Part shown: piece by piece, positions 3,032 through 30,200 of the stretch
How positions within the stretch are numbered: the first letter of the stretch is position 1
Layout: the number at the start of each line of letters is the position of its first letter
Assembly (NCBI GenBank): GCA_964490215.1
Contig: CAZBAM010000001.1
Coordinates: 194,962 to 258,961, forward strand
Direction of reading: 5' to 3'
Origin: Candidatus Micrarchaeota archaeon
GTDB lineage: Archaea; Micrarchaeota; Micrarchaeia; Anstonellales; Bilamarchaeaceae
DNA: 64,000 nucleotides
Position numbers and translations under genes: made by a program
The notes under the pieces: model-generated
What the model saw: the letters and a program-made list of their open reading frames with translations, nothing else
Database searches by the model: none
Told to the model about the DNA's origin: nothing

Positions 3032-3523
3032 TCATTTCCCCTTATTCTCCCCCTTGTAGACTCCTTCGTACATCGTCTTCGCTGCCTCGGCCAGCTTCAC
3101 GAAGACCATCTGGCCGATTTTCGCGTTGCGCTTGAGAGCCACCCCGTGCTCGTTCCTCACCACGAGGAGCGCCTCGCTCCTCCCCTCGTAGCCAGGGTCC
3201 CACACAGCGCACTCCAGCGTCACGCCGCAGCGCAGGAGCGATGAGCGGGGGAAGCAGAATGCGGCAGCGTCCGCTGGTATGCGGACGTACTCGTTGAACA
3301 TGACTTTGTAAGCGCCGGGCTGGAGGGTTATCTCGTCGGAGTTGAACGGGATGGGCTCCACCTCGCTTATCTTCCTCTCCCGGTTGTCAAAGTCAATTTT
3401 ACCGGCGGACCTGAACCGGTACGCCTCGCGCAGGGTAACGTCAATGCCTGCCGGCTGGAACTGCGACGGGTGCAGCACATCAACGGGCTTTATTTCCTCA
3501 AGATGCTGTTTTGGCAGAATCAT
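3032..3523 (-). CDS. dCTP deaminase/dUTPase-family protein
   Basis: ATG at 3521-3523 (MILPKQHLEEIK...) followed by dUTPase-like beta-barrel sequence; the 406-aa ORF-track extension upstream is antisense to the aldehyde dehydrogenase gene and was trimmed. Confidence 0.6.
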   Translation of the reverse strand: MILPKQHLEEIKPVDVLHPSQFQPAGIDVTLREAYRFRSAGKIDFDNRERKISEVEPIPFNSDEITLQPGAYKVMFNEYVRIPADAAAFCFPRSSLLRCGVTLECAVWDPGYEGRSEALLVVRNEHGVALKRNAKIGQMVFVKLAEAAKTMYEGVYKGENKGK

Positions 3524-7574: not shown

Positions 7575-7701
7575 TGCCTCGGTAGCTCAGTCGGTAGAGC
7601 GGCTGACTGTTAGTCCGCCTTTTTAGTAAAAAGGCGGCCCAAAAACTGGCTTCCCAGTTTACAGCAATCAGCAGGCCGGATGTTCAAATCATCCCCGGGG
7701 C
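7575..7701 (+). tRNA. tRNA-Asn (anticodon GUU) with a ~54-nt intron at the canonical 37/38 position
   Basis: acceptor GCCTCGG/CCGGGGC (one G-U pair), D-arm GCTC-AGTCGGTA-GAGC, anticodon stem GCTGA/TCAGC, loop CTGTTA[intron]A, T-arm GGATG-TTCAAAT-CATCC, discriminator G; no CCA encoded. Confidence 0.75.
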
Positions 7702-7810
7702 GTTTTAATTCATCCTGTTTTGAGACGGTAAGGATAGTTAGTTCACCACGATTTATTCATTTATGCGATATATTGTAAAGACATATGTTCTAAAGTACAA
7801 ATAATCCAGA

Positions 7811-8404
7811 ATGGTCAGGATTGACGATATGAAAGAACAGGAGATAAATTCTAGTCTAAAACAAAAAATTTTAGACGACCCCATAAAGCTCGGTTCTCTA
7901 CTAGTAGCAGTAGTTATGCTAATTGTTGCCATCTATTCACAAATTGAGAAATCGAAAGTAGATAACGAAAATTTAGCTTTGAATAAAGAGATATCGGATC
8001 TTAAAAAGCCGTCTATTATTGCACTGGATTATCGTGTTGAAGGAAATACTGCTTCGGAAGTCTTCTATTTTTATGTAACAAATCCATCAGATACAGAATA
8101 TTATGTAGATTTAACTCAAGGAACCTGCAAATCCAATTCTTCATTATTAAGTATATCTGCACCACCGGCAAAAAATAACCAACAAAACACAGTTGTAAGC
8201 GGCGATGAAATAACGCTGCCTTCTAATCCACCCCAAAATAAAATTCCGATACCACCTCACGGTAAAATCCAGATGCGCTGCGGTCCCTTCGATATAAGCA
8301 ATCCAGTTCGAGATTCTCCGATATATTTAACTACATGTATAAAATTTGAAAAAATTGAACAACCAATTTGTGAAGATTTGCAAATCATGGTTTTGAAAAA
8401 ATAG
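7811..8404 (+). CDS. hypothetical membrane-anchored protein in the AT-rich island
   Basis: 197 aa with an N-terminal hydrophobic helix (LGSLLVAVVMLIVAIY); AT-rich codon usage unlike the flanks. Confidence 0.45.
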   Translation: MVRIDDMKEQEINSSLKQKILDDPIKLGSLLVAVVMLIVAIYSQIEKSKVDNENLALNKEISDLKKPSIIALDYRVEGNTASEVFYFYVTNPSDTEYYVDLTQGTCKSNSSLLSISAPPAKNNQQNTVVSGDEITLPSNPPQNKIPIPPHGKIQMRCGPFDISNPVRDSPIYLTTCIKFEKIEQPICEDLQIMVLKK

Positions 8405-8626
8405 GACGGGTTATTTTTAGAAATCTTTGCATATTCCACATGCAATAATCCTACCAGAACCTGCATGGTTATGCGTGTATTGCGTATGAAAACGTAAAGT
8501 TAATAATGATAATAAGTAGTAAACTGTGTTAAAAAGATATAATTTATAAATGTATTCATACTAAGTTACTATGGGGTTGCTTCGAGGGCATGAGACTGCG
8601 GTCGATTAACCGGTAGGAGAGCCCCA

Positions 8627-9388
8627 TTATATTCTAATCATAGGTGGGACTTCATAAGATTCCAATTGAACTCTTGTCCGATTTTTATGAAATAGACAAT
8701 GCACCAGGTCATAATAATCTTCAATTTGTTTAATATGCCGTTCTCTGATACATCCAACGAGCATATCCGAAATTTGGATAGTTTTATGCGTTTTACTACT
8801 TCCATCCGCAATTTCTTTTATATTACACTTGCCAGTGGCAAAAAGTTTTTTCTTTAAACGGCCGCGTTCCAGTAATTTTTTTTCTTCGGGGACATTAAAA
8901 ATGAGCATATGATTACGCCCACGCGAAGTGGAGTATTGAAACATGTGCTTCTGATGGAATACTTGCTGGTCTATTAAAATTTCGAGATTAGGATCCAACG
9001 CATCTCTGGGGTGCTGATGCGCCCAGATATGAAAGAGGTACTGTGCTTCATCTTCTATTCTAAAGACTCGGTCTTTATTATCAGAAGGAGTTGGGAAAAC
9101 AGTATAGTATGCCTCCAGTTCTAATGTGGCAATTTCCCGTAGTTTCTTTTTTAAAAAGTCATCATAAACCTGCAGTCCTGTGCTCCTACACGCGTGTCGA
9201 AATCCCACATATTTAAATTCACCTTCCATAACTTTGTTATAAAGTGTAATAACCTCAGGTGGATCATCTTCTGAAATTGTCAGGATTTTTTTGACCTTGG
9301 GCAAAATCTGTTGGGGCATACTTACCAGGCATAACGCTGCAATTGGTTGAGTATTGCCCGACTCGTCCATTGTAAGCAGTTTAGACAT
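8627..9388 (-). CDS. hypothetical protein in the AT-rich island
   Basis: 253-aa ORF; no motif recognised. Confidence 0.45.
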   Translation of the reverse strand: MSKLLTMDESGNTQPIAALCLVSMPQQILPKVKKILTISEDDPPEVITLYNKVMEGEFKYVGFRHACRSTGLQVYDDFLKKKLREIATLELEAYYTVFPTPSDNKDRVFRIEDEAQYLFHIWAHQHPRDALDPNLEILIDQQVFHQKHMFQYSTSRGRNHMLIFNVPEEKKLLERGRLKKKLFATGKCNIKEIADGSSKTHKTIQISDMLVGCIRERHIKQIEDYYDLVHCLFHKNRTRVQLESYEVPPMIRI

Positions 9389-9571
9389 TTTACACGGTAT
9401 TAAAAGAGAGATTTCAATTTAAATAATCTTCTACCATAATGCATAGTCGTAAGGAAGTGTCAATACAAAAGGCATATTTACGTCAGAAACCCTCGGTTCC
9501 CCGGGCGTTTTTGTTGATTGCCTTGAACCTCCCGCAGACCAGGCAGAATCGGAACGGACAGAAGTGAAAGC

Positions 9572-10477
9572 ATGATGCGCGAGATATCACTTGAGGAAGC
9601 CAAACCAATCTGGGACAGGTTCGTGCCGGAAAAGCTGGTCTGGACGGACGACTGGGACATCCGCGTAGCGTTGTGCAGGGAATACGGAGAAAAACCCCTC
9701 ATCCTCTACGACGGGAAAAACTTCTTCCCCCTGCAATTTGAGCCTGAACACGGCTACTACACCATCCTGGGCGGGACCACGGCGGAGAGGAACTACGTGA
9801 CCTTCGACCAGCAGGTCATGAAGACGACGAAAGACATACCCGAGGACATATATTTCGATTTTTTGGTGGACAGGTTTGAAGGCTGCCTGGAAGGGGCGTG
9901 CCCGCAATTCTTCATAGACCTGGCAGGGATAAACGGCATAGACGATTACATCAAACGCTTTTCCGGGAAGCATCAGAAGAATTTCAGGAGAACGATAAAG
10001 CAGTTCGGGGAATATGAATTCGTGAAGCAGGGGACGCTCGAGGAAATGGGCCACATGAACAAGATAACGTTCGGGGAAAAATCCGATTTCGCGACCGAGA
10101 ACAGGGCGTGCTATGAGATTCTGGACAGGGACCCGCGGACGGAGTACTGGTCCATAGTCAAGGGCGGGAAAAAAATCCTGATAATCCAGTATTTCTTCTA
10201 CGGCCGCACCATGTCGGTCTGTGTCTGGGGCGTGGATGAGGCATACGGCGAAACGCTGAAGGTCGCGTTGGCAGAAGGGATAAAGCTCGCCAAAAGCAGG
10301 GGCTGCACGAGAATAGATTATGCCCCGACATATTCCAGCTGGAAGTTCCTTTACCGGCTGGATACAGCGCCACTCTGGAGGTATAAGAGGGGCAACATCC
10401 CGGATTCGGTAGATACGGCTGAATACGGAGTTCCGGCGGATGAAAGGGCAAGGCTCAAGGCAGAAGGGCGGCTATGA
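9572..10477 (+). CDS. putative GNAT-fold acyltransferase (FemAB/CelD-like); weak call
   Basis: 301 aa; loose resemblance to Acetyltransf_6-type proteins only. Confidence 0.3.
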   Translation: MMREISLEEAKPIWDRFVPEKLVWTDDWDIRVALCREYGEKPLILYDGKNFFPLQFEPEHGYYTILGGTTAERNYVTFDQQVMKTTKDIPEDIYFDFLVDRFEGCLEGACPQFFIDLAGINGIDDYIKRFSGKHQKNFRRTIKQFGEYEFVKQGTLEEMGHMNKITFGEKSDFATENRACYEILDRDPRTEYWSIVKGGKKILIIQYFFYGRTMSVCVWGVDEAYGETLKVALAEGIKLAKSRGCTRIDYAPTYSSWKFLYRLDTAPLWRYKRGNIPDSVDTAEYGVPADERARLKAEGRL

Positions 10478-11356: not shown

Positions 11357-13540
11357 ATGACTAAAATAAAACAAATAGCCGGGACAGCATTGCGCTGCAT
11401 GGTAATAGCTTTGCTTCTGGTATCAGTTGCCAGTGCCGCATCGGTAACGGTCCGCGTCATCACGGTAGAGACCGGGCCTGCCGGCGTGGATACGCCTTCG
11501 GTCACAGGCGTGAAGGTCTACCTGAAGAGCCCGGCCACAGGCGCCACTCTTGATTCGCACACGACCAGCAGCCAGGGGGTCGGATTTGCGGTGAACGTAA
11601 GCCAGCAGTTCTACGTGACTACTGCCGCCTCAGGCGCACTGGGCGGCGACTATGGGTTCTACCAGGAACTTGACGGAGATGGGGTGCCGAGTTTCACGGT
11701 GAAGCAGAGCGGAAGCAGCTACCAGCTCTGCCGCGTTTCGGACAACTCGTGCTCGTCCATCCTGATGCTCATATTATACAGGATACACGGCACGGCAGCA
11801 CCGGCCGAGACCGGCTACACAGACCTCGTCTGCACAGACACCGATGGCGGTGACAAGATATACACCAAAGGGACAGTGACGTATTCCTACAAGTACAACG
11901 GAGTGCCGTCAAGCAGCACCTACACGGACTACTGCAACGGCACTAGCGCTGTGATAGAGAGTTTCTGCGTCGGCACCACGCCGAACATCTGGAACAGGCC
12001 CTGCCCGACAGGGTATTCCTGCTCTGCAGGTGCGTGCGTGCAACAGCAGCAGGCGCCACAGGAGGCAACTGTGCGCGTCATAGCTGTGGAAACCGGACCG
12101 GCAGGAGTTTCTACCCCGTCGGTTACCGGCGTGAAAGTATATCTTAAAAGCCCGGCCACAGGCGCCACTCTTGATTCGCACACGACCAGCAGCCAGGGCG
12201 TCGGGTTCAACGTGAACGTAAGCCAGCAGTTCTACGTGACTACTGCCGCCTCAGGCGCACTGGGCGGCGACTATGGATTCTACCAGGAACTTGACGGAGA
12301 TGGTGTGCCGTCGTTCGCGGTAAAGGATGTCGGAGGCAGCCTGCAGCTATGCAAGCTGTCGGACAATTCTTGCTCGTCCGTTCTGGTGCTGATATTGTAC
12401 AGGATACACGGGCAGGCAAACCAGACGCCGACCGGCTATACGGACCTCGTCTGCACCGACACAGATGGCGGTGACAAGATATACACCAAGGGGACGGTGA
12501 GTTATTCGTACAAGTACAACGGCCAGCCGTACAGCTACACCTACACGGATTACTGCAACGGCACGACCACGGTCATAGAGAGTTTCTGCGTCGGCACCAC
12601 GCCGAACATCTGGAACAGGCCATGCCCGACAGGATATGCCTGCTCTGCGGGCGTATGCGTGCAACAGCAGCAGGCTGCACAGGAAACGCTCAAGGTGATA
12701 GCGGTTGAAACAGGACCGGCAGGGGTGACCACGCCTTCGGTAACCGGCGTTACAATCCACCTGAAGAGCCCTTCAACAGGTGCGACGCTTGATACCGAAG
12801 TGACGACCACGTCAGGGGTTTCATTTACAGTGAATTCAGGCCAGCAGTTCTACGTGACGACTGCCGCAAGCGGAGCCCTTGGAGGGAACTATGGCTTCTA
12901 CCAGGAGCTTGACGGCGACGGGGTGCCGTCTTTCGTCATAAACAGCAGCGGGCTGTGCCGTGTCTCCAACGGCGAGTGCTCGTCAATAAAGATGCTGATA
13001 TTGTACAGGATACACGGCGCGGCAGCACCGCCCCAGCAGAATCCGACCTTCGCGCTGAAGCTCAGGACCGGCTGGAACCTGGTCAGCATCCCGTATGAGC
13101 GCGGCTGCTTCAAATCAACCACCTGCCCGGCAGGAATCAAGGCATACGCCTACAACTCTGCCACCAACACGTACAGTAACTGGACTGCCAAGCTATACGG
13201 GCAATCGCCTGGCTGCAGCATGATGTCAGGCAGGGCATACTGGATAAAGACAAGCACGCCATGCGAGCTGGAATACGAAGCCAGTGGCGCGGCGTTCCAG
13301 TTCACCGGCCCGACGCCGGCAGTGCCTAACCGCTGGATTGACCTTGGCGCGCCGATTGTAGCGACGACCTGGGAGACGGTGCGCGGCAGCTGTGTAGCGG
13401 AAAAGGGACCGTGGAAATTTGATGCCGCATCCCAGAGCTGGGTGAAGGCGACGAGCATCGCTCCCTTTGATGGATTCTTCGTGAAGGTTGTGAGCAGCTG
13501 CGAGCTGGGAAGCAGCGTCTACCCGCCGCTGCCGGAGTAG
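11357..13540 (+). CDS. secreted surface protein with three tandem ~207-aa repeats, each ending in a Cys-knot (CNGT..CVGTTPNIWNRPCPTGYxCSAGxCVQQQQ)
   Basis: N-terminal signal peptide (ALRCMVIALLLVSVASAAS); repeats are obvious at both protein and DNA level; 727 aa. Confidence 0.7.
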   Translation: MTKIKQIAGTALRCMVIALLLVSVASAASVTVRVITVETGPAGVDTPSVTGVKVYLKSPATGATLDSHTTSSQGVGFAVNVSQQFYVTTAASGALGGDYGFYQELDGDGVPSFTVKQSGSSYQLCRVSDNSCSSILMLILYRIHGTAAPAETGYTDLVCTDTDGGDKIYTKGTVTYSYKYNGVPSSSTYTDYCNGTSAVIESFCVGTTPNIWNRPCPTGYSCSAGACVQQQQAPQEATVRVIAVETGPAGVSTPSVTGVKVYLKSPATGATLDSHTTSSQGVGFNVNVSQQFYVTTAASGALGGDYGFYQELDGDGVPSFAVKDVGGSLQLCKLSDNSCSSVLVLILYRIHGQANQTPTGYTDLVCTDTDGGDKIYTKGTVSYSYKYNGQPYSYTYTDYCNGTTTVIESFCVGTTPNIWNRPCPTGYACSAGVCVQQQQAAQETLKVIAVETGPAGVTTPSVTGVTIHLKSPSTGATLDTEVTTTSGVSFTVNSGQQFYVTTAASGALGGNYGFYQELDGDGVPSFVINSSGLCRVSNGECSSIKMLILYRIHGAAAPPQQNPTFALKLRTGWNLVSIPYERGCFKSTTCPAGIKAYAYNSATNTYSNWTAKLYGQSPGCSMMSGRAYWIKTSTPCELEYEASGAAFQFTGPTPAVPNRWIDLGAPIVATTWETVRGSCVAEKGPWKFDAASQSWVKATSIAPFDGFFVKVVSSCELGSSVYPPLPE
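11444..13020 (+). repeat. intragenic tandem repeat, period 618-621 nt, about 2.5 copies
   Basis: copy starts near 11444, 12065 and 12683; stretches such as GTGAAGGTCTACCTGAAGAGCCCGGCCACAGGCGCCACTCTTGATTCGCACACGACCAGCAGCCAGGG recur almost identically. Confidence 0.8.
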
Positions 13541-14452: not shown

Positions 14453-15604
14453 ATGAAGCTTGGCAATAATGGCATCGCAGCGGCCGCCGCCATCTGCACC
14501 ATCCTTATCGCTGCACTGATTGTGCTCGTATTAGCGAACGGTTCGCTTGGGGAACGGCTGGCCGAAACCGAGGCTGCACTCAACAAAACCAGCGCCGAGA
14601 AAGCAGGCATCCAGGCAACGCTGGCAAGGACACAGGCCGCGCTTTTGGAAAGGGAGCTGCAGGTGGGGAACCTCACGTCGCGGCTCGCGGAGAAGGAGCT
14701 GGAATTGAACGCGACCGCCGCCAGCCTCTCGCAGGCCGAGGATGAGCTCAACAGCATCAGGGAGGAGCTGGAGAGGAATGCCATCTCGCTTGCGCAGGCA
14801 AGGGAGGAGTTCGCCTCACTGCGGGAAAACCTGAGCGGGATGGAGGAATCGCTCAACGAGGACGTCCAGTGGTTCAGGGACAACTCGCGGCTGCCGGATT
14901 CCGCGTCCTATTTCGTCCAGTACGTGATGGACAAGTGCGTGAATGACAGCTCCCTCAACCTTGGATGCGTAGCGCTGTTCATGGAGAAGCGCGTGGGCTT
15001 CAGGTACATAGACGAGCAGAATGACAGGCTCTACACCATAGACGAGATGGTGGCGCGGGGAGGTGGCGACTGCGAGGACTATTCACTGTTCGTGAAGGCG
15101 CTCCTCAACAGCCTGCCGGACGGCAGCAACGACCTCTGGCTTCTTGGCTGGAAGCATGGCAGCGGCCAGTTCCTAGCCTACCGGAGCGACAGCGGCACCG
15201 AGTGGCACTACCCGGGCCAGGGGGTTTATCTTGGCAGGCTGGATGAGACAAGCCCATATGCCATCTGCTACCTTACCGACTTGAGCGGGCCTGTGCCCAT
15301 GGGCCACTGCGTAGTCGCGCTTGCCGGCGGGGTGATAGAGTCGGTGGCGGACCTCAGCAACCTTGACGGCGCGGTGGCATTGGAGCCGCAGAACGGCGCC
15401 TACACGGGATACGTAGGCAACGGCGGCCAGTACCACCTTTGCACGGACGGGGAGAGGTCGTGCGGCGGGACGCCCGGCGAGATATTCATCGTCATGACCA
15501 ACGACGACCTTTACGAGTTCAAGAACGGGAAGTGGGAAAGCTTCGGCACCTATCGCGCCCAGGCCGAGGCCCTGCGGGAGAGGCTGGCCGCTACTCATCC
15601 ATGA
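14453..15604 (+). CDS. membrane-anchored coiled-coil protein with a C-terminal transglutaminase-like cysteine-protease core
   Basis: N-terminal TM, ~130-aa coiled coil, then GGGDCEDYSLFVKALL (TGase-like Cys) followed by WHYPGQGVY...LDE (candidate His/Asp). Confidence 0.45.
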   Translation: MKLGNNGIAAAAAICTILIAALIVLVLANGSLGERLAETEAALNKTSAEKAGIQATLARTQAALLERELQVGNLTSRLAEKELELNATAASLSQAEDELNSIREELERNAISLAQAREEFASLRENLSGMEESLNEDVQWFRDNSRLPDSASYFVQYVMDKCVNDSSLNLGCVALFMEKRVGFRYIDEQNDRLYTIDEMVARGGGDCEDYSLFVKALLNSLPDGSNDLWLLGWKHGSGQFLAYRSDSGTEWHYPGQGVYLGRLDETSPYAICYLTDLSGPVPMGHCVVALAGGVIESVADLSNLDGAVALEPQNGAYTGYVGNGGQYHLCTDGERSCGGTPGEIFIVMTNDDLYEFKNGKWESFGTYRAQAEALRERLAATHP

Positions 15605-16670
15605 AGCGCCAGAATACGTAGTCAAAAATCCTCTTTCTCAGGCCTGTCCGCGGGTCTTCAAGAAGCCAGCCCACGAACCATGAGAAGGGCAGCGACGGGT
15701 TGGTGAAAAGGTCAAACAGGAAAACCTGCGCGCGGTGGGTGGATGCGAGGCGCGACATGATGCGGGCGCCTTCCGGGTCGTTGCGGATGTGCTTCGCGAC
15801 TCCTTCGCCGCTTTTCACTGCGTAGTATATCCCTTCGGTGGTCACCGGGTTGAGCAGGCCTGCGGCATCGCCCACGAGGAAAACGCCCGGCCCGCCTATA
15901 CCACCCCGTGTGCCGTCAGGCCCGACGGGAAACTTCCAGCCGCGGTAGTCTGCGTTGCCTCGGTATCCCTCGCTCCTGAGCTCTGCGGGCTCAAGGCCGA
16001 ACTCCTTTTTCGCCCATTTCCTTACCCGCGGTGCGAGTTCGTGCATCTGGACGCCGGCCATGGCCCCGCCTATCATGGTCTGCTTCCTGTTCTTTGACAT
16101 CAGGTAGCCGTAGCCGTGGGTGAATATTCCGGGCAGCCAATAGACGCGGAACTCCTCAGACGGGCGGTCAAGCACGAAATGGAATGCATGGCCGACTACG
16201 TGCTCCATGGGCAGGCCGAGGAACGGCCGGACTACCGAGAACGAGCCGTCAGCGCCCACGAGCCATTTGTAGCGGTAGCGGGTTCTTGGGGTTTCCACGT
16301 ATGCCGGGGTTATCGTTGTCACTGGTTCTGAGAAGCGGATTTCCGTATTGGCGTCGCAGCCGCTGCGGAGCCAGTTCTCAAACTCACAACGGCCCACTGT
16401 CCAGAGGTAGGGGCGGCCGTAGGATACGTGGTGCACGCCTTTCGCAGTGCCGACGCCGACCGTTTTCCATTCCTGCGCGCCCCGGAAGATTGACGAGGGG
16501 TCAGTGCCGGGAATGACCTTGGAGCTGATTTCGCCTGAGCAGATTTTCCTTCCAGGGGCAGAGTTTTTTTCCAGCACGAGCACGCGCAACCCGGAACCGG
16601 AAAGGTTTTTGGCGCAGGAAAGCCCGCCCGGGCCTGCGCCGACAATGACCACGTCGTAGGAGTCAGCCAT
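15591..16670 (-). CDS. geranylgeranyl reductase family FAD-dependent oxidoreductase
   Basis: YDVVIVGAGPGGLSCAKNL dinucleotide-binding motif and overall GGR-family similarity; 359 aa. Confidence 0.85.
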   Translation of the reverse strand: MADSYDVVIVGAGPGGLSCAKNLSGSGLRVLVLEKNSAPGRKICSGEISSKVIPGTDPSSIFRGAQEWKTVGVGTAKGVHHVSYGRPYLWTVGRCEFENWLRSGCDANTEIRFSEPVTTITPAYVETPRTRYRYKWLVGADGSFSVVRPFLGLPMEHVVGHAFHFVLDRPSEEFRVYWLPGIFTHGYGYLMSKNRKQTMIGGAMAGVQMHELAPRVRKWAKKEFGLEPAELRSEGYRGNADYRGWKFPVGPDGTRGGIGGPGVFLVGDAAGLLNPVTTEGIYYAVKSGEGVAKHIRNDPEGARIMSRLASTHRAQVFLFDLFTNPSLPFSWFVGWLLEDPRTGLRKRIFDYVFWRFMDE

Positions 16671-16777
16671 GGCGCATATTCGCGCCTGCGGCTTTTAAGC
16701 CATTGCGTGGGCAGGTGAACAAGATTGATAAAAAGGTTTAAATCATGTATGAACACAGCGTTATTGGGAGTGAAACA

Positions 16778-17638
16778 ATGGCTGCTGAAAGAAGGGTTCT
16801 TGAACGCTGCGCAGTGGGGGACAGGATACTGCTGGGTTTTGCCAAGCACAACTACGAGCCTGCCGTTGAGCACATTAAGAAGATGGCAGGTGGTAGCGCC
16901 CGCAACCTGGAACTGCTGTTCGCCAGGAGGGTGGATGGCTCATCATCGCGAACTGTCTATGATTATGCCACTGGAAAGAGTACGGCGGTAGAACGGCTCC
17001 GTGGCGACGGGAGTTTCATACTGCTCAGGTACATGCCGCACAGAGGATACACCTCGGCAGCGCCGCCTTCCCCGGCCGAAGTCCTGGGGCCTGCGTTCGA
17101 CCTCGGCGAGAGCTTGCAGGGGGAGGGGCTCCGCATCTTCTATAACATGGGCAACAGGCCGGCAGGAGAATGGTTCGAAGTTGCCGAGGCCAGGCTGAAT
17201 GCAGATACAAAACTGATGTATGGCATGTATTATTTTGATTGCGTAAATCTGCTCCGTGTGATGGAAGAAGGGTCACGCCCGTTTGAAGCAGGAGGCGCCC
17301 GCTTCATCAGGAATGCGGTCAGTGAAGGGGCGTATTACAATTCAGGAGGGAACAGAGCGACAAGCTGCGATGACAACTGGGAGCTGGCGCAGAGGGGCCT
17401 GACCGCCCGGATTGTGAACTCCCTGAATGATATGAGGGAACACCAAGACGGCGTGCGCTTGTCACGAAGACTGGGAAGAGAGGGCATGGCGGTGCAGGGG
17501 CCAGGCGACTTCTTGGACGACACCTTAATCTCAGGGGTCCTGCTGGTGTTGAAGGCACAGGGGGAGCACCTGCATATCACTCCGGCCATCGTGCCCTACG
17601 GGCCGTACATAAACGGCTTGCTGGCTACGGTGAGATAG
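16778..17638 (+). CDS. uncharacterised paralog family, member 1
   Basis: SD-like GGGAGTGA 6 nt before the ATG; similar to the next two genes. Confidence 0.6.
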   Translation: MAAERRVLERCAVGDRILLGFAKHNYEPAVEHIKKMAGGSARNLELLFARRVDGSSSRTVYDYATGKSTAVERLRGDGSFILLRYMPHRGYTSAAPPSPAEVLGPAFDLGESLQGEGLRIFYNMGNRPAGEWFEVAEARLNADTKLMYGMYYFDCVNLLRVMEEGSRPFEAGGARFIRNAVSEGAYYNSGGNRATSCDDNWELAQRGLTARIVNSLNDMREHQDGVRLSRRLGREGMAVQGPGDFLDDTLISGVLLVLKAQGEHLHITPAIVPYGPYINGLLATVR

Positions 17639-17686
17639 GCTGCGCGCACAACGTTCATGAGCATAACGTATGATGGGAGTGAAACA

Positions 17687-18586
17687 ATGATAACTGCCAG
17701 GGAGAGACGACTGCTTTCTTACAGCAAAAAAGGGGACAGGATAGGATTCAGCTGCATTAGCTCGTTCTGCAACGAACCGCTCCTGGAACACGTGCGGAGG
17801 ATGGCGGACGGCGTGGCGCCCAACCTGCGGCTGCTGTCAGCCGTTGGGATTGACGGCAGCGGCACGACCAGACCCATCATAAAGCAGCACTGGTACGGAA
17901 TGAGAATGCGCCAGCCGCATCCGGGTGAAAGGATTTTCGTTGGACTGGAATGCACGGCTGACAGGGTCAGACCAAACGGCCTGTTGGACCCGGTCTTTGA
18001 CCTGTCCGAAGCGGTATTAGCCTTCGGAACGTCATCAGACGCCAGAATCTACTATCGCACCGGCGAGCCGACCACGCTGTACGACGTTGCCGGGGTTCGG
18101 CTGAAGCTTGCGATGAAAGTCAGTTACAGTTATGACATCACATACGACCTGACCGGAATCTATTACCTGGATTGCACGAAGATCCTCAACGCGATAAAAG
18201 AACTGTCGCTACCAGCCGAATTCGGAGGGAAACCTTACGTAAGGGAGTGGATAATGAAGGCGGCGTATTACATCCAGGAAAGGCGGGAGAGGCGGAAGAT
18301 TCTTTCCAATAGTGCGTCTGACTGGAGTGACGCGCAGAAAGGGATGGCCGTAAGTACGGCCTGGTTCCTGAACTCCGCAAACGGGTGGAATGGAGGGGTC
18401 AGGTTGTCAGGCTGGCTGAGAGGCGAGGATGAGTGGGGATGGGAACATTGTGGCAATGGGGATAGTGTTGCACTCGCATTCATTCTGGACAGGTTGAAAA
18501 CGGATGACTGGATATACGTCATTCCAAGCGACCCTTCCGGAAGCCACACGGCCGAAATCATTCGGTTCTTGGACGGGATGAAGTAA
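17687..18586 (+). CDS. uncharacterised paralog family, member 2
   Basis: 16-nt start context TGGGAGTGAAACAATG identical to member 1; shared motifs GDRI, APNL, YYLDCTKIL. Confidence 0.6.
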   Translation: MITARERRLLSYSKKGDRIGFSCISSFCNEPLLEHVRRMADGVAPNLRLLSAVGIDGSGTTRPIIKQHWYGMRMRQPHPGERIFVGLECTADRVRPNGLLDPVFDLSEAVLAFGTSSDARIYYRTGEPTTLYDVAGVRLKLAMKVSYSYDITYDLTGIYYLDCTKILNAIKELSLPAEFGGKPYVREWIMKAAYYIQERRERRKILSNSASDWSDAQKGMAVSTAWFLNSANGWNGGVRLSGWLRGEDEWGWEHCGNGDSVALAFILDRLKTDDWIYVIPSDPSGSHTAEIIRFLDGMK

Positions 18587-18644
18587 GCAACAGGAACGAA
18601 AACGCCGGCAGTGGATACACACGCCGGCGATGGAGGATGAGAAC

Positions 18645-19496
18645 ATGGCTGACAGGATATTGCTTCAATGCAGCAAAAAAAATGACGAGATAGCAGTCGG
18701 ATTTAAACGGGACGTGCGAAACAGCAGGCCAATCCTGGACCACATCAGGAAGCTGGTGAATGGGGCGGCACCGAACCTGACGGTGAAGTGTGCCTTTGAG
18801 ATAGATGGCCGAGCCGATACATCCTACGACTATGTTACCAGGAAAACCACGCCGTGCCCGGATGCCATGGTTGGAGGGAGCTTCATGCTGCTTGCATGCA
18901 CAGCGGACGGAATCAAGCCTTCAGAACTGCTGCAGCCGGTGTATGACTTCTGCGGATGCCTGGATAAATCCCCGTCCATCTGGTATTCTCCGGTGGGCAC
19001 AGCATCCAAGGGAAAATACGAGATATCGGAGGCGCGATTGGAATATCTGCCGCTTCCCGGAGAATTCAGCAGCCAAGCCGGCCTCCCCGGAACGTATTAC
19101 TTGGACAGCACGAAGATGCTTAGGGCCATCGAGAGACTGACGCGACAGCCGATGGACGGCGGCAATGGCGAGATAAGGGGCATGGTTGAGGTGGACGCGT
19201 ATCGCTTCCATAAGAAATGGGAGTTTCAAACCCCCGAACTGAACTGGCGCCTTGCCCAGAGCGGGCTGGTCTCAAAAATCATCTGCAATATGCGGAAGGA
19301 CACGCCTTGGAAGATTAAGACGTCAGGACAACTGAGACCGAACAACCCCGTCACCGACTTGATAGACGAAGTGAAGATGGGAATCATCTACATCAATCTC
19401 CTGAGAGAGCTGAAGGGCGACGACAGCATACACCTGGTTACCGCAGGGCTCCCGGTGTGGGTCTACATAAACAACTACCTGACGAAGGGGCATTAA
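18645..19496 (+). CDS. uncharacterised paralog family, member 3
   Basis: GGAGGATGAGAACATG start context; shares the APNL and YYLDSTKML motifs. Confidence 0.55.
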   Translation: MADRILLQCSKKNDEIAVGFKRDVRNSRPILDHIRKLVNGAAPNLTVKCAFEIDGRADTSYDYVTRKTTPCPDAMVGGSFMLLACTADGIKPSELLQPVYDFCGCLDKSPSIWYSPVGTASKGKYEISEARLEYLPLPGEFSSQAGLPGTYYLDSTKMLRAIERLTRQPMDGGNGEIRGMVEVDAYRFHKKWEFQTPELNWRLAQSGLVSKIICNMRKDTPWKIKTSGQLRPNNPVTDLIDEVKMGIIYINLLRELKGDDSIHLVTAGLPVWVYINNYLTKGH

Positions 19497-19568
19497 CAGG
19501 CCGGACGACGACTGACCCGGCAGGCCGCACCCGCGCACTTTTAAAAATCAGGACAGGGATGATTCATC

Positions 19569-20417
19569 ATGCCAGAGCAGACTTTCGGAGGCGACGACGA
19601 CAGCGGCAGCGCCGAGCCGGAACAGCCGAAACGGAAAATCCAGCTCTCAAAGTTCGGCCTGGCACCGGACGTCAACATCCGGGACGTGTTCTGGAAGCTC
19701 ATGGCGTCCTACGCTGCGACGAAGAAGCCGGGCGTGGAGCTCAAGACGCTGGAGCACGACAGGTTCGCGCTGGTGAGGGTGGCCTTGTCCGTGCTTTCAA
19801 GCCCGCACGGCGAGCAATATGGACTCGCGCCCAGGTTCATCGCCACATACACAGCCGCGATGCTTCTTGAAGGCGGCTGGAAGGACGCGTTCGCAGAGTT
19901 CCTGGAGCGCGGCCAGGAAGACGGCGCGGTGGCGAAAGTGCTGTCTTCGGCGCTCGCGAAGCTCGCGGCAGGCGACGAGCACCGGGAAAGGCTGGGCGAG
20001 TGGTTCGGCACCATGATAAGGGACAGGAACAGCAACGCGGTGGCAGTGGCGTACCTGGCCGGCATGAAGGACGGGAAGTTCGCGGCACGCGTGAAAAAGG
20101 AGCTCATGATAATAGCGAGGGGGGACATAGGCGGGAACCAGCTCAACGCCATAGAGGTCCTGTCCAGGATGAAGGACGACGCCGAGGTGAGGCAGTCGCT
20201 CATAATACTGCTGTCCCACTGGGACGAGGGCGCGAGGGAGGCAGCGGCAGGGGCGCTGAAAGGCATGGCCGGGGACCCGGAAGTCAGGGCGGCTGCGGAG
20301 AAAAGGCTCGGGGAGGAAACTGACGCCGGGATAAGGAAGGTGCTGGAGAAGATAGCCGGCAGGAAGGGAAGTGAACGGCAATCCGAAACGGACCGGCAAT
20401 CCGGGACTGAAGCATAG
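19569..20417 (+). CDS. HEAT-repeat (PBS-lyase type) protein
   Basis: repeated ...AxxALGxxGDPEA...-like units (AVAYLAGMKDGKFAARVKKELMIIARGDIGGNQLNAIEVLSRMKDD...); TTTTAAAAA TATA about 25 nt upstream. Confidence 0.6.
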   Translation: MPEQTFGGDDDSGSAEPEQPKRKIQLSKFGLAPDVNIRDVFWKLMASYAATKKPGVELKTLEHDRFALVRVALSVLSSPHGEQYGLAPRFIATYTAAMLLEGGWKDAFAEFLERGQEDGAVAKVLSSALAKLAAGDEHRERLGEWFGTMIRDRNSNAVAVAYLAGMKDGKFAARVKKELMIIARGDIGGNQLNAIEVLSRMKDDAEVRQSLIILLSHWDEGAREAAAGALKGMAGDPEVRAAAEKRLGEETDAGIRKVLEKIAGRKGSERQSETDRQSGTEA

Positions 20418-24589: not shown

Positions 24590-27112
24590 CTATCCGCCGT
24601 AAGGCACCTTGTTCGTGCCTCCGTTCGCAGTCGTCCATTTTCTCATCTTGTCCAGGCGCTTCCAGGAAGGGCAGAAGCTGTTCGGGCACTTGTCCCTCAG
24701 GTAATAGTAGGCAGCCATCCTTGACGCCCCGCGGTCCTTGTTCGCGTCGCTTTCGCAATTGCGGACATAATCAACGAAATCAGTGTAACCTTTGTAGCCG
24801 TAGCAGTTGTCAAGCTGGCCTGACACGCATCCTTTTCCATTCGGATTCTGGGCGCAGTAAGCGGCAGTCGTGCTCCAGCTTATGTAGTAATCCCCCACCC
24901 AGTTGTTCACGTCGCTGCCATCAGACGGCCAGGTGCCTGCGTAAAGGTTTGCGGCAATGTATGCTATGAACACCTGGTCCTTGTCAGTGCCTGCCTCCCA
25001 GTCCAGCAGGTTGACACCCCTGTCGTTATGGTATTTGCGGACTTTCTCCGCGGCAATGCGCATCTTCTCAGCGAGTTTCATCGTGCCCACGCACGCCGAG
25101 TCTGCCGCGTTGAATGGGTTGAATGACGTCGGATTGCATGCCTTTGCCAGGTCAAGCCTGATGTCCAGCCCGCGGCGCAGGGCGTCGTTGTATATCGCCA
25201 CGTGGGCCGGGTCGCCGGTCTTGCCGGCCGGCTGGTACGAGTCTGGCCAGTAGTCAATGGGCGGCTCAAGGCTCTGCATCAGGCCCAGGCCGCACCAGCG
25301 CCATGATGGCTGGCTGGTGCCTGAATTTGGCGCATTTGCCAGTGGGCACTGTGCCGCAGGGTCGCTCATGCTGTTGAAACCCGTGGAGTAGCATTCGTCA
25401 TTCGTGCTGTCGTCCGTGTCAAAGCATCCGGTGGTGCCTGGATTGGCTTTGCAGACCTTGGCTGCCTGGCAGGGCTTGAAATTGCTCTCTCCGGCGGCGA
25501 TTGCGCGCACGTAAGACGGGTCAAGGCTGAACTGGCTTGCGAAATAATCAAGCTCAGGGAAGCTGTCGCAGTATGTCAGGGGAACCGACGCCGTACCGAA
25601 TTTGAACGGCGGGTCGCCCAGCTTCTCTGATATGCACGCATCGCAGCGCACCAGGGTGTCGGTGGCCTTTTCCATCTCCGGCTGCCCAGGGCTGAGGAAG
25701 TCGTTGTCGGTGAATGACATCTGATTCACCTGGAATGCCGCGTTGAAGTTCTCATTGCAGGAGCCGGACGCCTGGTCCGGGAAGCGGATGAACGTTCCAG
25801 GCTGTGGTGATATGTCAGTGTCCTGCGCAGTATTGATGCTCTGCTCTGTGTAGGCCTGGCAGCCGCCGTACCACGAGCTTATGCGCTCGTTGTTCTTCCC
25901 GAGGGCGCAGTCAGTGCACGCGAGAGGGTTGCCGAGGCTGGACGCGGTGCTGGTGAAGGAGTATGGCGCGACGCCGATGACGCCTGCCTGCGGAAGGACC
26001 TGGGAATACGTGGCGATGAAGGCCGAATAGCCGTTAATGAGGCTGGACTCGTCCCAGGGGCAGGTGCCGCTGGCGTCGGTGCCGCCTGCGTCAAAAAGCA
26101 CGTATGGGATTATGGATGGCTTGCCGCCTTCCCTATGAAGCGCGTATTCCGAGAATTCCACTGCGGCGTTCCATGCCGAAGTCGGGTCGCAGGAACCGCT
26201 GAAGTCCAGGTAGCGGGAGTCTATGCCATATGCGATGAGGTCAACCTGCTTTGAGATGGCGCTCGGCTTGCAGCTGGCAGGGTCAGTGGGTTTCAGGTTG
26301 CATGCCGCGGGGTCATCTACCATGACCGCGTTGAGCGCATCGTAATCCCCGAGCTTCGGCGCGAGCGCGACCTGGCAGTATATTTTCGGCGGGTTGGTTG
26401 AGCGGTCGTTTCTGCACCCGGTGTTTATGGCTTCTATCTGCGCCTTCACCGCCTCGGCCTGGGAAACGTCGTAATTCATCTCGGTGGTGACGACTACGGG
26501 CCCCACGGGCTTGATGGTGAGCCTGCCCGTGGCCACGTCCTGGCCGCCTGTGCCGAGGACGTTGGCGATTTGCAGCGTCTGCGTGGCGTCTATGTTCTCA
26601 CCATCGCTGTAGAGGACATAGACAGGCATCACGCCCTTGTCAAGCAGGCAGACCGCCCTTGACGCGCTCGGAAGCGGGTAGGGCATGGTCTTGCTGCCCG
26701 CGAGCCATTGCACTGCCATGCCCAGGCGGGTGTTGCAGTAGCCGTTGGCGTCCCCGAAATCCGCGAACGACGGCCCCTGGCCCAGCCTGAAATAATTCAG
26801 GGTGAGGTCCTTGCCGTATCCGCCAGCTCCTATTGACTGGAACTTCTCCGGCTTGCAGTCCTTGTCAAAATAGCAGTAGCCGCCAACGTAGGAGGTCAGC
26901 CAGGGGAAGAACTCGGTGCCCTTCTTGCACACCATGCAGACGCAATTCGCCTCCAGGCAGTTCTGCGTCAGGGCTGAGTCCGATATGGGCACGTTCGCCA
27001 TCTGCTGCACGTAATCGTTGACGTAATACCTGCTGGAAGAGATGTGGTTGAGGCATCCTGCGGCAAGAAGGAACGCCAGCAATGTGATGACCGTCGCAGG
27101 GGCCGCCCTCAT
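24590..27112 (-). CDS. secreted Cys-rich 840-aa protein with a lytic-transglycosylase (SLT/lysozyme-like) domain
   Basis: signal peptide with lipobox-like LAAGC; residues ~515-655 carry YVRAIAAGESNF ... WCGLGLMQ ... AIYNDA (ES / GLMQ / A-YN SLT motifs); about 40 Cys. Confidence 0.5.
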   Translation of the reverse strand: MRAAPATVITLLAFLLAAGCLNHISSSRYYVNDYVQQMANVPISDSALTQNCLEANCVCMVCKKGTEFFPWLTSYVGGYCYFDKDCKPEKFQSIGAGGYGKDLTLNYFRLGQGPSFADFGDANGYCNTRLGMAVQWLAGSKTMPYPLPSASRAVCLLDKGVMPVYVLYSDGENIDATQTLQIANVLGTGGQDVATGRLTIKPVGPVVVTTEMNYDVSQAEAVKAQIEAINTGCRNDRSTNPPKIYCQVALAPKLGDYDALNAVMVDDPAACNLKPTDPASCKPSAISKQVDLIAYGIDSRYLDFSGSCDPTSAWNAAVEFSEYALHREGGKPSIIPYVLFDAGGTDASGTCPWDESSLINGYSAFIATYSQVLPQAGVIGVAPYSFTSTASSLGNPLACTDCALGKNNERISSWYGGCQAYTEQSINTAQDTDISPQPGTFIRFPDQASGSCNENFNAAFQVNQMSFTDNDFLSPGQPEMEKATDTLVRCDACISEKLGDPPFKFGTASVPLTYCDSFPELDYFASQFSLDPSYVRAIAAGESNFKPCQAAKVCKANPGTTGCFDTDDSTNDECYSTGFNSMSDPAAQCPLANAPNSGTSQPSWRWCGLGLMQSLEPPIDYWPDSYQPAGKTGDPAHVAIYNDALRRGLDIRLDLAKACNPTSFNPFNAADSACVGTMKLAEKMRIAAEKVRKYHNDRGVNLLDWEAGTDKDQVFIAYIAANLYAGTWPSDGSDVNNWVGDYYISWSTTAAYCAQNPNGKGCVSGQLDNCYGYKGYTDFVDYVRNCESDANKDRGASRMAAYYYLRDKCPNSFCPSWKRLDKMRKWTTANGGTNKVPYGG

Positions 27113-27262: not shown

Positions 27263-30200
27263 CTACTGGACCCGCCCGCACTTCCTGCACCTGCTGCCGC
27301 GATAGTTGGAAGTGCCGCAGCAGTAGGTGGTGCGGGCCAGCATCTGCGGCTGGACGGCCCTCGTCACTGACCTGCCGATGTTTTCCACGGTCGTCTGGAG
27401 CCTCTGCGTGAAGCTTGTTGAGCCACCGGTCTTGGACCTTGCCAGGTAGCCGGACACGATGTCCTTCGTGGACGGGCCTCCCATCGGGAAGCCGTGCCAC
27501 AGCGGCATCAGCGGGTTGAGCAGGCTGAACATCTGGTTCTGCATTATGCCGAAGCTGTAAAGCTCCTGGTTCCGCCTCATTGCGAGCGCTTCGGCGCCCA
27601 CGGTCCGGTTCACGGTGTTGGTGAATGCCGCCGCGCGTATGCGCTCGTCGTACATGAAAGCGCCCTCGTTCATGCGGAAGGCGTATTCCGCGGCCTTGAC
27701 CGTGGGATTAAGCACATGGCGGTAGTCGTAATCGCTGATGCCGGGGTTGGCCTCGTCCGTCCTCGCACTGGAATACACGCCCTTCCTCGTCAGGTAGATG
27801 TCCTGGGGCCCCTGGAGGAGTCCCTTGGTGAAGTCACGGCCTGCAAGCTGGTGCTTCTCAAGGCTGCCTCCGTAGACGTTAAGGCCGGCCAGCCGGTCCC
27901 AGGTCTTGCCTGAGAACCACTTGAACGAGAACGGGTTCACGGACTGCATTGCTTCCCTTATGCGGGGCTGGGTGTAGTTCCACTGCGCGAGCGCGTTCCC
28001 GGTGGAATCCCACTTGGACGCGTAGCCCTGCATGGACATCTGCAGGCCCCTCATCATGGAGGTGTAGGGCCTCATGATCTTGCCTGCCAGGTCCAGCGGG
28101 AAGCCGTAGAACGCCATGAAGTTGGTGTACTGGCCCCGGTCCATGAACGCCCTCAGGTTGTCTTTGATGTCGTATACCTGGGCCGGGCCGAAGTGGAAGA
28201 ACGAGCCCCACGCCTGGTGGGCGCCGAAGGACGTTGACGTTCCCCACGGGTTCCTGTCTATTATATAGTCCCACGCCTGGTGGTAGCCGAAGTGCGTCAT
28301 GGCGTATGCGCGGGCCGCTGTGCGCTGGTCCGGGGTCATGCCCTTCAGGGCCTCGCCCGAGAGTATGGACTGGGCGTTGTGCCAGGACTGCTGCCTCTGC
28401 ATCTCGCTCAGCGGCGCGATGTCGTAGGCTGCCTGGTGGACCCCGCGGTCCATGCCTCCTGCGGCCAGTGCGACTGTGGAAACGTAGTCGCCGAGGTGCA
28501 GGCCGATGTCCCTCCACGGCCTCAGGAACGTGGAAAGCCCGGGCGAGTCCACGCCGAAGAACCTCAGCATGGACGGCGCCACAGGGGCGGTCTGCCTCTT
28601 GGACTGGACGGAAACCGCGCTCTCGTTCCAGAACTTTGTGTAGTCCCACGTGGTGGTGGCGTACTGCCAGAGGACCGCTGCGAACACCTTCTCCTTGCCG
28701 TAGTTGTATCCGCCTGCCTTGGTGTCGTTCTTGGCAGCTTCCAGGAACGCTTTCCAGGCCTCGGGGTCCTTTGACGACGCTATGCGCTCAAACTCGCGCT
28801 GGAGCGCATCGCTGCTGAACTTGATTGTGACGTCCTCGGGCCTGAACGGCCTGAGCTGGCCCTTGTCGTCGCGCAGCGCCACGTCCCCGGCCAGAACGCG
28901 GTCCAGGTCGCTGAGCATCATGCCCTTGTGGTAATAGGCAAGCCCGCCTTCGTGGAGCATAACCATGGCTTTGTCGGACCTGACGAGGTCGTTGTAGGTC
29001 ACGGGCCTGGCCTGGCCGTTGCTGTCAAAGAGCCGCCCCTCCAGCTCACGCTTGTACCTGCCCATCAGCTTGTTTAGCTCTGCCTGTGCCGAAGGGTCGC
29101 TCACGTTCATCTTCTGCAGGAAGACCAGGTCAGGGTGGTTGGCCTCCATGCCCTTTTCCAGCAGGGCCTTTTCCAGCACGCCGGCCAGCACTCCGCCGTA
29201 GAACCTCGCGGTCTCGCGGGTGGTGCCGCCGTAGCAGTTCTGGCCGAACTGTGAATTGAAGCGGTTCTGCAGGTCCTGGGTCATAAGTTTCTCAGTAAGG
29301 AGCTCTTTTGCCATCCTGGTCCTCTGCTCATTGGACCATTGGGCGGAGCCGGGCATGCGGTCAAGCTGTGCCTCTATCCCTGCGTCGTAGTAAGGAACGT
29401 AGCTCTTGGTGAACCTGGACTGAACCCACTGCCCCAGGGCGAAGTTCTCCCTGGCGTCAAGGGAGGTTATCCAGTGCCTCTTGACGTCAACGATGGTGGC
29501 CTCCTTCGGCAGGCCGAGTTCGCTCTTCGGACCCCATATCATCTGGCCGGTCTTCTTGTCGTACATGTGCTGCCCGTCTTTGTCAGCTCTCAGCTCGGCA
29601 CCGGGCTGGCTCGTGACGCCTCCGTACATGAAGCCCACTATCTCGGCCATGGAAGCTGCACCCATGCCCTTGCCCATTGCCTTCTGGAAACCGGCCCTGC
29701 CCTCCTCTGTGAACAGCGATATCATGTCTGCCTTGTTCCTGGCAGCCAGTGCCTCAAGCTCTGCCTTGTTCTGCATGAACTCCGGCAGCTGGGACATGCT
29801 CATCTGGCCGGTCTTCGGGTCCACGTAGACCGGGTCAAGCCCGACGCACCGGTTTGACATGTTCAGGCGGAAGGATACAAGCCAGTCCTGCACGCCGCCG
29901 CGGCCGTAGCCGTGCTCGCAGTCCCATATCATGGTGCCGAATATCATGGTCCTGGCCAGGTGGCTGCCCTCAAGCGATTCCGTGCCCACGTTGCAGACGT
30001 AGGCGTCGGCGCCGTGCTTGCCGCTCAGCGTCGCCATGCGCGCGCGGTTTTCCTCGTTCAGCACTGTCTGCACCATGCCCATTTTCAGGTATTCCGGCTT
30101 GGCGTCGTGCTCTATGCCCTCCAGCCTCTGCGTTATGGCAAGCGCCTGCCTGTCTATGTGGGCGCCGTGGGATTCCATCAGCGCAGCCAGCCTCCGTATC

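Follow-up and report, generated by a model that had tools for sequence, protein, structure and literature searches.

What do three consecutive, mutually similar genes encode that resemble no described protein, and what might they do for the archaeon that carries them? The genes lie in a stretch of 64,000 nucleotides (nt) from a Candidatus Micrarchaeota archaeon (assembly GCA_964490215.1, contig CAZBAM010000001.1, positions 194,962 to 258,961 of the forward strand). The whole stretch is called the window here, and coordinates without a locus name refer to it; related loci carry L numbers. Paralog 1 (par1; 16778-17638, + strand, 286 amino acids (aa)) is the first gene of the unit and belongs to the par1-type subfamily. 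Paralog 2 (par2; 17687-18586, + strand, 299 aa) is the most divergent copy, and paralog 3 (par3; 18645-19496, + strand, 283 aa) belongs to the par3-type subfamily. They represent a very rare orphan protein family, restricted to DPANN archaea and with almost all placed members in Micrarchaeota. It has been seen on only about a dozen contigs from metagenomes, and no cultured organism carries it.

Three paralogs of an orphan family

The three open reading frames (ORFs) were found on the + strand where the earlier note had placed them. Their mutual similarity, estimated there at about 25-30%, amounted in nearly full-length BLASTP alignments to 31% identity for par1/par2 (E 3e-24), 28% for par1/par3 (E 8e-27) and 29% for par2/par3 (E 6e-25). 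This likeness is far above chance, and the three are true paralogs. The motifs ERRxL, GDxI, P..EH[IV][RK][KR], APNL and YY[LF]D[CS][TV].[IL]L, noticed previously, are seen in the alignment. A central GSF[IM]LL had been ascribed to all three proteins; it is present in par1 and par3, and par2 carries FVGLE instead. No transmembrane segment had been recognized, in agreement with a maximum 19-residue Kyte-Doolittle mean of no more than 1.33 in all 22 family members. The proteins are soluble, cytoplasmic and about 290 aa long, with isoelectric points (pI) near neutral (5.7-9.0). The order par2-par3-HEAT, which includes the HEAT-repeat protein gene downstream, is found unchanged in two independent assemblies from Logan (ERR3804376, ERR4334730) and in diverged form in SRR29366192. 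Because of this recurrence in independent assemblies, the triplication is not an assembly artefact, a possibility that had been raised beforehand as speaking against the proposal.

Searches with the three paralogs matched no family of Pfam-A 2025 at E<=1. In NCBIfam r20, only HAD-IIA was returned, with an E of 0.2 and 11 bits against a cut-off of 100, which is meaningless. For the 20 aligned members, no Pfam family (E<=10) was matched by more than one member, PADLOC-DB 2.0 gave a single PDC-S70 match (E 0.024) and nothing more, and PHROGs gave no consistent match and no family matched by more than one member. Two alignments were run as profiles against the whole set of PDB sequences, and no match was significant. 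The only entry was the 2H phosphoesterase USB1 (U6 snRNA phosphodiesterase; E 0.74-1.0), aligned to query positions 54-139 in three chains of one family. An assignment to USB1 or the 2H phosphoesterases was rejected on these E-values, the lack of a HxT/S motif pair and the lack of a 2H fold among the Foldseek matches; the only well-conserved histidine of the family is H263. A confident profile match to a well-known enzyme family, named in advance as the finding that would count against novelty, was not obtained. The proposed undescribed family is thereby borne out: it has no profile match in Pfam, NCBIfam, PADLOC, PHROGs or the PDB sequences, and its confident model has no fold match.

Relatives are few. 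A word-indexed search of 5.8 billion proteins retrieved only 7-8, and an exhaustive HMMER search of 1.84 billion 50%-representatives retrieved 18, several of them fragments. No relative was found in a family scan of a genome-contig collection, and a metagenome family scan added one new locus (L086). IMG/VR contained no match to the protein patterns or to the promoter cassette described below, as judged with short exact patterns of limited sensitivity.

The structure of par3 was predicted with AlphaFold2. An alignment of 9 sequences resulted in a predicted local distance difference test (pLDDT) score of 68, and 20 sequences raised it to 89.6 with a predicted template modelling score of 0.86; all five models from the 20 sequences scored between 88.7 and 89.6. 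The predicted N-terminal part (about residues 1-115) is a ferredoxin-like beta-alpha-beta-(hairpin)-beta-alpha-beta sandwich. It is followed by three more strands around a variable, indel-rich loop (about 128-152) and by a C-terminal helical domain of five helices and two short strands. Foldseek comparison of the confident model with the PDB gave nothing at E<=0.001 (best E 0.028, template modelling (TM) score <=0.25), and comparison with BFVD gave no significant match (best E 0.009, TM 0.18). The first, weak model (pLDDT 68) likewise had no PDB match at E<=0.001. Matches to SOR, DyP, CutA1 and HPPK were set aside as generic ferredoxin-like or two-domain alpha+beta similarities (TM<=0.25). The best matches of the N-terminal domain on its own were CutA1 and the ACT-like C-terminal domain of MgtC, with probabilities of 0.75-0.87, TM on the target of 0.44-0.61 and non-significant E-values of 0.03-0.25. 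These domains share the beta-alpha-beta-(hairpin)-beta-alpha-beta order over the N-terminal ~115 residues; unlike them, the family shows no such sequence signature and has an extra region of ~170 residues without analogue. At the protein-family level the family is rated as categorically new, with the fold comparison made by Foldseek on PDB and BFVD.

Nearly all of the 22 copies keep D14, D62-Y63, D101, Y114, E129-R131, Y152, K157, R178, W201, Q205 and H263 (par3 numbering), and A50, R131 and W201 are invariant. The most degenerate copy is par2 of the window, with changes that include D62W, E129G and H263Y. This near-constant set of polar and aromatic residues argues for a conserved binding or catalytic site. 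In each protein, a single pocket for binding or catalysis appears to be retained, and diversification affects the periphery and the loop. Four known motifs considered by eye were rejected. The HEPN Rx4-6H motif is present in par3 only, the residues E52 and D54 of a nucleotidyltransferase (NTase) or AEP-primase 'hExD' on beta3 are not conserved, a RAMP glycine-rich loop is accompanied by no Cas fold matches, and a HxTx motif is not conserved.

Promoter cassette, substitution rates and array turnover

A family-specific promoter cassette precedes par1, the sole gene of the window that has it in full. Its 27-nt core ATTGATAAAAAGGTTTAAATCATGTAT (16724-16750, + strand) consists of an element resembling the TFB recognition element (BRE) and TATA box and of a conserved post-TATA segment. 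The conserved block runs from this core through a variable middle to the Shine-Dalgarno site and the ATG at 16778. This arrangement, ATTGATAAAAAGGTTTAAATCATGTAT followed after ~10-15 nt by GGGAGTGAAAC-ATG, stands before 10 family genes, which represent all major subfamilies and come from at least 7 contigs. In all, the cassette private to the family covers ~27-60 nt of promoter and 5' untranslated region. Mean identity of the cassette core is 0.88, compared with a mean protein identity of 0.33. In the window the cassette is unique even at 3 mismatches, and it was not found in the other Micrarchaeota loci examined. Across 1.53 Mb of DNA, a 17-nt version of the core was found 6 times, in each case ahead of a family gene. 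The conservation is non-coding, since L089 and L092 have the upstream ATG in another reading frame. A reading of the segment as an N-terminal extension ('MYEHS.IGSETM') was rejected for this reason and because that ATG lies 4 nt after the TATA box. The cassette was also rejected as a generic strong promoter of the lineage: ribosomal-protein, Alba and other promoters share only the generic TATA with it.

A relic of the cassette's 3' part stands before par2 (17674-17689, + strand). It reads TGGGAGTGAAACAATG and comprises the Shine-Dalgarno site, spacer and start codon, the TATA part being degenerate. This 16-nt start context had been described earlier as common to par1 and par2, with a variant, GGAGGATGAGAACATG, at par3, and both statements are correct. 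Beyond Shine-Dalgarno coupling alone, the shared context is a relic of a duplicated cassette of promoter and 5' untranslated region. In the window, par2 has retained the Shine-Dalgarno part and par3 a variant of it; the intergenic spaces contain neither a TATA box nor a T-run. With the sole BRE/TATA cassette at par1 and no T-runs between the genes, the polycistronic transcript suggested before is plausible, and par1, par2 and par3 are likely co-transcribed from the single cassette promoter. A TGAT-N12-ATCA quasi-palindrome, read from the sequence, spans the BRE/TATA of the cassette. Since conservation extends past BRE/TATA into the interval between TATA box and transcription start site and includes the quasi-palindrome, the conserved segment at and after the TATA box may be an operator for a dedicated regulator. 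If it served one such regulator, all copies would answer one signal.

The proteins encoded behind this cassette diverge rapidly. Between the window and L001, the flanking genes share 78% (geranylgeranyl reductase-like flavoprotein, GGR), 73% (HEAT), 77% (KH), 81% (Top6B) and 91% (Top6A) aa identity, and the best pairs of paralogs share 41-49%. Between the window and L086, values of 83% (GGR), 71% (HEAT) and 78% (KH) stand beside 35-36% for the best pairs of paralogs. Ratios of non-synonymous to synonymous substitution rates (dN/dS) were estimated according to Nei and Gojobori. From the window to L087 they are 0.60 for par3 and 0.83 for the C-terminal part of par2, with 0.17 for HEAT and 0.14 for KH. 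From the window to L001 they are 0.46-0.54 for the paralogs and 0.09-0.20 for the flanks, at similar dS. The two copies of L092 have a dN/dS of 0.79 to each other. At non-synonymous sites, the coding sequences of the array thus evolve 3-5 times faster than their neighbours. Close orthologs differ at sites throughout the protein, and a substitution hotspot falls at about 133-160.

A neighbour-joining tree separates old subfamilies (par1-type, par3-type and P0009 or locus-B type) and contains recent duplications. Traces of rearrangement were found inside the arrays. In L001, a 186-nt tract is 89% identical between paralogs that are otherwise ~50% identical. A 32-nt inverted repeat of 91% complementarity (L001 4332-4363 and 5154-5185) has one arm in the coding sequence of the second paralog, in the region of the YDYVT motif, and the other in the spacer before the cassette of the third paralog; it is a rearrangement footprint inside the array. 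Between the third and fourth paralogs of the same locus, 6157-6210 duplicates a segment of the GGR-side promoter (3118-3170, 'GCCTGCTTTTAATTGGCATGCGCTTCTGGAAGGCGGCAGCCGCGTTCAC'). In L088, a segment of the HEAT-side promoter, 'CGCCTACTTTTATAAA', is duplicated upstream of a family copy (1-21 and 968-990). It follows from the mosaic tracts and the duplicated flank fragments that segmental duplication and unequal recombination expand and contract the array. Through turnover by segmental tandem duplication and recombination, related genomes now differ in copy number at this site (1-4). Neither inverted nor direct terminal repeats were found around single or arrayed copies. An insertion sequence or transposon was rejected on this ground and for want of any transposase profile or fold match.

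Insertion site, dispersal and neighbouring genes

On the left, the array is bounded by the GGR gene (15591-16670, - strand), which is not a member of the family. On the right follows the HEAT-repeat protein gene (19569-20417, + strand), part of a HEAT-KH-Top6B-Top6A block. It has its own TATA, as the earlier note had reported, with a TTTTAAAAAT box 23 nt upstream of the ATG. Its Pfam match to HEAT_2 (E 1.8e-5, 25.4 bits) is below the gathering score of 27.7, and its orthologs give likewise weak HEAT_2 matches. Pfam FAD_binding_3 and Pyr_redox_2 were matched by the L001 ortholog of GGR. The window also encodes Top6B and Top6A, a PNO1/Dim2-like KH protein and an intron-containing tRNA.

Top6A of the window belongs to a cluster at 90% identity in which the named members are 'Candidatus Micrarchaeota archaeon' or 'Candidatus ainarchaeum sp.'. 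A genome scan provided 80 species-representative loci around Top6A, nearly all titled Micrarchaeota. Both results place the window in a metagenome-assembled genome of Micrarchaeota (DPANN). Searched with a hidden Markov model of the family, none of the 80 carries a copy at the syntenic site. Their widespread gene order is GGR (-), then HEAT (+)-KH-Top6B-Top6A and two giant proteins on the - strand. GGR orthologs, 54-83% identical, directly adjoin HEAT in genomes without the array, and the start codons of the two genes are 41-105 nt apart at empty sites (L009, L011, L013, L014, L021). In view of these short empty sites, the 2.9 kb at 16671-19568 are an insertion into a short divergent promoter region. 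The array is a 2.9-kb accessory insertion between GGR and the conserved HEAT-KH-Top6 block. The G+C content at third codon positions (GC3) is 0.67-0.69 in the paralogs and 0.74-0.86 in GGR, HEAT, KH and Top6. The earlier description of the array as core-like and not obviously acquired therefore had to be given up: it is absent from all 80 syntenic loci, its site usually measures 41-105 nt, and its GC3 is lower. A link to the HEAT protein, raised as the question of constant adjacency, did not hold either. The HEAT ortholog stands beside KH-Top6 in more than 40 loci without the family, the block being kept in dozens of family-free Micrarchaeota, and copies of the family occur at two other locus types (B and D, below) without a HEAT neighbour. 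The HEAT gene is a bystander from a housekeeping block and unrelated to the family.

Four types of loci carry the family. Locus A (GGR, copies, HEAT-KH-Top6) contains one copy in L094, two in L086, three in the window and four in L001; L087 and L088 are partial views of it. Locus B has the order DUF429, copies, methyltransferase-like gene and class-IV aminotransferase, with one copy in L002 and two tandem copies in L092; L002 was placed taxonomically by its synteny with L092. At locus C (L090, L093), an unrelated HEAT_2-like gene and a gene for ~205-211 aa precede one copy. Locus D (L005, GC 0.48) has one very divergent copy between prefoldin/FtsY and ScpA. L090 and L092 are both situated on the complete 1.57-Mb Micrarchaeota chromosome OY970229.1, where the family has at least 3 copies, distributed over 2 loci, and locus A has none. 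The FtsY of L005 has its nearest named relatives in Woesearchaeota and Nanoarchaeota, an approximate placement. The placed members are in Micrarchaeota, apart from this one divergent copy on a Woesearchaeota/Nanoarchaeota-like contig. Because no gene is a constant partner, the family protein seems to act either by itself or together with its paralogs.

At locus C, the gene pair before the family gene is conserved (L090 8264-9907, L093 260-1903). Its first member is a HEAT_2-like protein of 312-318 aa, 55% identical between L090 and L093 and unrelated to the HEAT protein of the window (BLAST, E>0.5); the second is a 204-211-aa protein with no Pfam match on record. Elsewhere in L090 (16676-20924, on OY970229.1), a ribonucleotide reductase large subunit with multiple LAGLIDADG-containing inteins is encoded, whose product exceeds 1968 aa and extends past the end of the locus.

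Several neighbours in the window deserve a record. A 383-aa protein (14453-15604, +) combines an N-terminal hydrophobic segment, a coiled-coil region with weak Pfam coiled-coil matches and, by eye, a C-terminal 'GGGDCEDYS' transglutaminase-like Cys motif; it is kept beside GGR in L001 (54%) and L023 (43%). The giant proteins of 840 aa (24590-27112, -) and 1617 aa (27263-32116, -) have no Pfam match, and the N-terminus of the smaller one is lipobox-like. Both keep synteny with Top6A in most of the 80 Micrarchaeota loci, at 25-53% identity, and are probably a conserved, fast-evolving pair of surface proteins. A low-GC island (8001-10000; GC 0.41 versus ~0.59 for the window) lies just downstream of the intron-containing tRNA (7576-7702, 127 nt), which scored 57 bits with Rfam and was missed by ARAGORN. 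The island encodes a DUF3800 protein (8627-9388, -) and ORFs without Pfam match, and may be an integrated element. A secreted protein of 727 aa, rich in Cys and without Pfam match (11357-13540, +), is composed of three internal repeats of ~190 aa each, with a distinct domain at the C-terminus. Near the window end, two ORFs (59224-63093, -; 63180-64000, -) have a GC skew of +0.28 to +0.33; the strong positive skew over 59224-64000 results from 69-nt (23-aa) tandem repeats. The first encodes a 1289-aa protein with a Laminin_G_3 domain, a GDSL lipase domain and a NosD/right-handed beta-helix region. In the second, a repeat of 69/138/207/414 nt continues to the window end.

Possible roles of the family

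Two bacterial systems appear closest in behaviour, the strings of immunity genes and the lpl cluster of Staphylococcus. In the Staphylococcus type VII secretion system, tandem strings of non-identical immunity genes (esaG, tsaI) stand beside polymorphic toxins (PMC9484751). The family resembles them in its divergent tandem paralogs at a fixed locus, in copy numbers that vary between strains, in recombination between paralogs and in cytoplasmic products without enzymatic annotation. The 1-4 tandem, non-identical and recombining copies at one site are what an immunity array would contain; an adjacent toxin or secretion gene was not found within 10 kb at the four locus types. In contrast to the immunity proteins, the family proteins are about twice as large, have conserved polar residues that suggest an active or binding site, are set in archaea (DPANN) and show no sequence or fold relationship. 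For the lpl tandem paralog cluster of S. aureus, the evolutionary unit has been described as 3'ORF-intergenic-5'ORF (PMC2568036). Both systems are recombining arrays in which the intergenic region and the 5' end of the next gene are far better conserved than the gene bodies. The lpl products are bacterial lipoproteins with signal peptides, unlike the cytoplasmic and non-homologous family proteins, and the conserved element here is an archaeal BRE/TATA cassette common across genomes and loci.

The best guess is a co-regulated, diversifying family of cytoplasmic binding proteins or enzymes engaged in genetic conflict or host interaction; a role in housekeeping metabolism is unlikely. Its most favoured, still speculative form is a diversifying recognition or effector family in genetic conflict, held tentatively and short of an even chance. 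The copies might serve to defend the cell against viruses or mobile elements, to confer toxin immunity, or to manipulate the host archaeon on which these episymbionts rely, or guard against it. More doubtful is the fuller proposal of an unrecognised DPANN-specific conflict or interaction system, directed against viruses and mobile elements or acting in the relation of episymbiont and host, that would combine a new fold, a conserved pocket, a hypervariable loop, recombining tandem arrays and a shared ultraconserved promoter/operator. Several observations weigh against a part in conflict. Next to the family, none of the four locus types carries a known defence gene or one for a toxin, secretion, a nuclease or an integrase. 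PADLOC was negative for the family members, and with housekeeping genes as neighbours and no consistent PADLOC match, membership in a known anti-phage defence system was not found. The raised dN/dS stays below 1 and would be explained equally well if constraint on redundant copies were relaxed. Single-copy genomes exist, and the putative operator is deduced from conservation alone.

Relaxed constraint is also the core of the main rival explanation, which is nearly as likely. According to it, the family is a lineage-specific enzyme or small-molecule binder, for example an ACT/CutA-like sensor with a helical domain, which serves ordinary physiology, for instance in responses to stress or nutrients, and its fast evolution reflects redundant duplicates in small, drift-prone DPANN genomes. 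About a dozen Asp, Arg, Lys, Tyr, Trp and Gln residues kept in nearly all copies would fit this, as would the dN/dS below 1 and a dedicated promoter, which suggests regulated expression. The CutA1 and ACT-like MgtC matches of the N-terminal domain point the same way, but they are not significant. Against an ordinary role speak the extremely patchy occurrence of the family, seen even between closely related Micrarchaeota, the turnover of copy number at a single site and the lack of a metabolic gene partner. It is rather improbable that the paralogs are subunits of one pseudo-symmetric hetero-oligomeric complex, with the Shine-Dalgarno-coupled operon ensuring stoichiometry. Such a complex would account for the joint retention of par1-type and par3-type copies at the GGR-HEAT locus (window, L001), for a par1-type and a P0009-type copy together in L086, and for the tight intergenic spacing behind a single promoter in the window. 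Against it stand L094 with only one copy at the same locus, single copies at loci B, C and D, gene order and number that vary among genomes, and the loss of several conserved residues in par2.

A domesticated or resident gene of a DPANN mobile element or virus, inserting with its own promoter at intergenic hotspots, would explain the insertion into a promoter region, the dispersal over 2 loci of one chromosome, the GC3 below that of the flanks and the copy in a different DPANN phylum-level lineage. This origin is very unlikely, given that neither terminal repeats nor an integrase, a transposase or a tRNA target turned up, that IMG/VR (protein patterns and cassette), PHROGs and the BFVD folds gave no match, and that dS between orthologous copies matches the dS of the genes on either side, which is what vertical descent in the clade would produce. 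Slightly less probable again is an autoregulatory DNA-binding factor that recognises the cassette, so that gene and cis element travel together. The cassette does co-occur with the gene in all subfamilies, and the quasi-palindrome over BRE/TATA could be its site. Pfam and fold searches revealed no helix-turn-helix, winged helix-turn-helix or ribbon-helix-helix, however, the pI is near neutral, internal operon copies lack the cassette, and the rapid change of the protein contrasts with a constant DNA site. That the ORFs are spurious or decaying, or that the array is an assembly artefact, is scarcely credible. The high dN/dS and the degeneration of par2 at some conserved sites might be taken for decay, but the ORFs are intact and full-length across many genomes at 22-50% identity, the alignment-dependent AlphaFold model is confident, the arrangement recurs in independent assemblies, and dN/dS stays below 1.

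The molecular basis of DPANN symbiosis and defence is largely unknown. DPANN genomes have a size of ~1 Mb, and the keeping of up to four copies therefore implies a real benefit. The family offers a well-defined predicted fold, for which no solved or viral analogue was found, and, at a fixed place on the chromosome, clear signs of accelerated evolution and of turnover of the array. It is also a rare case of a cassette that is far better conserved (88%) than the proteins that it drives (33%), which provides a handle for finding the regulator. If a role in genetic conflict or host interaction proves true, the family would represent a new kind of archaeal system.

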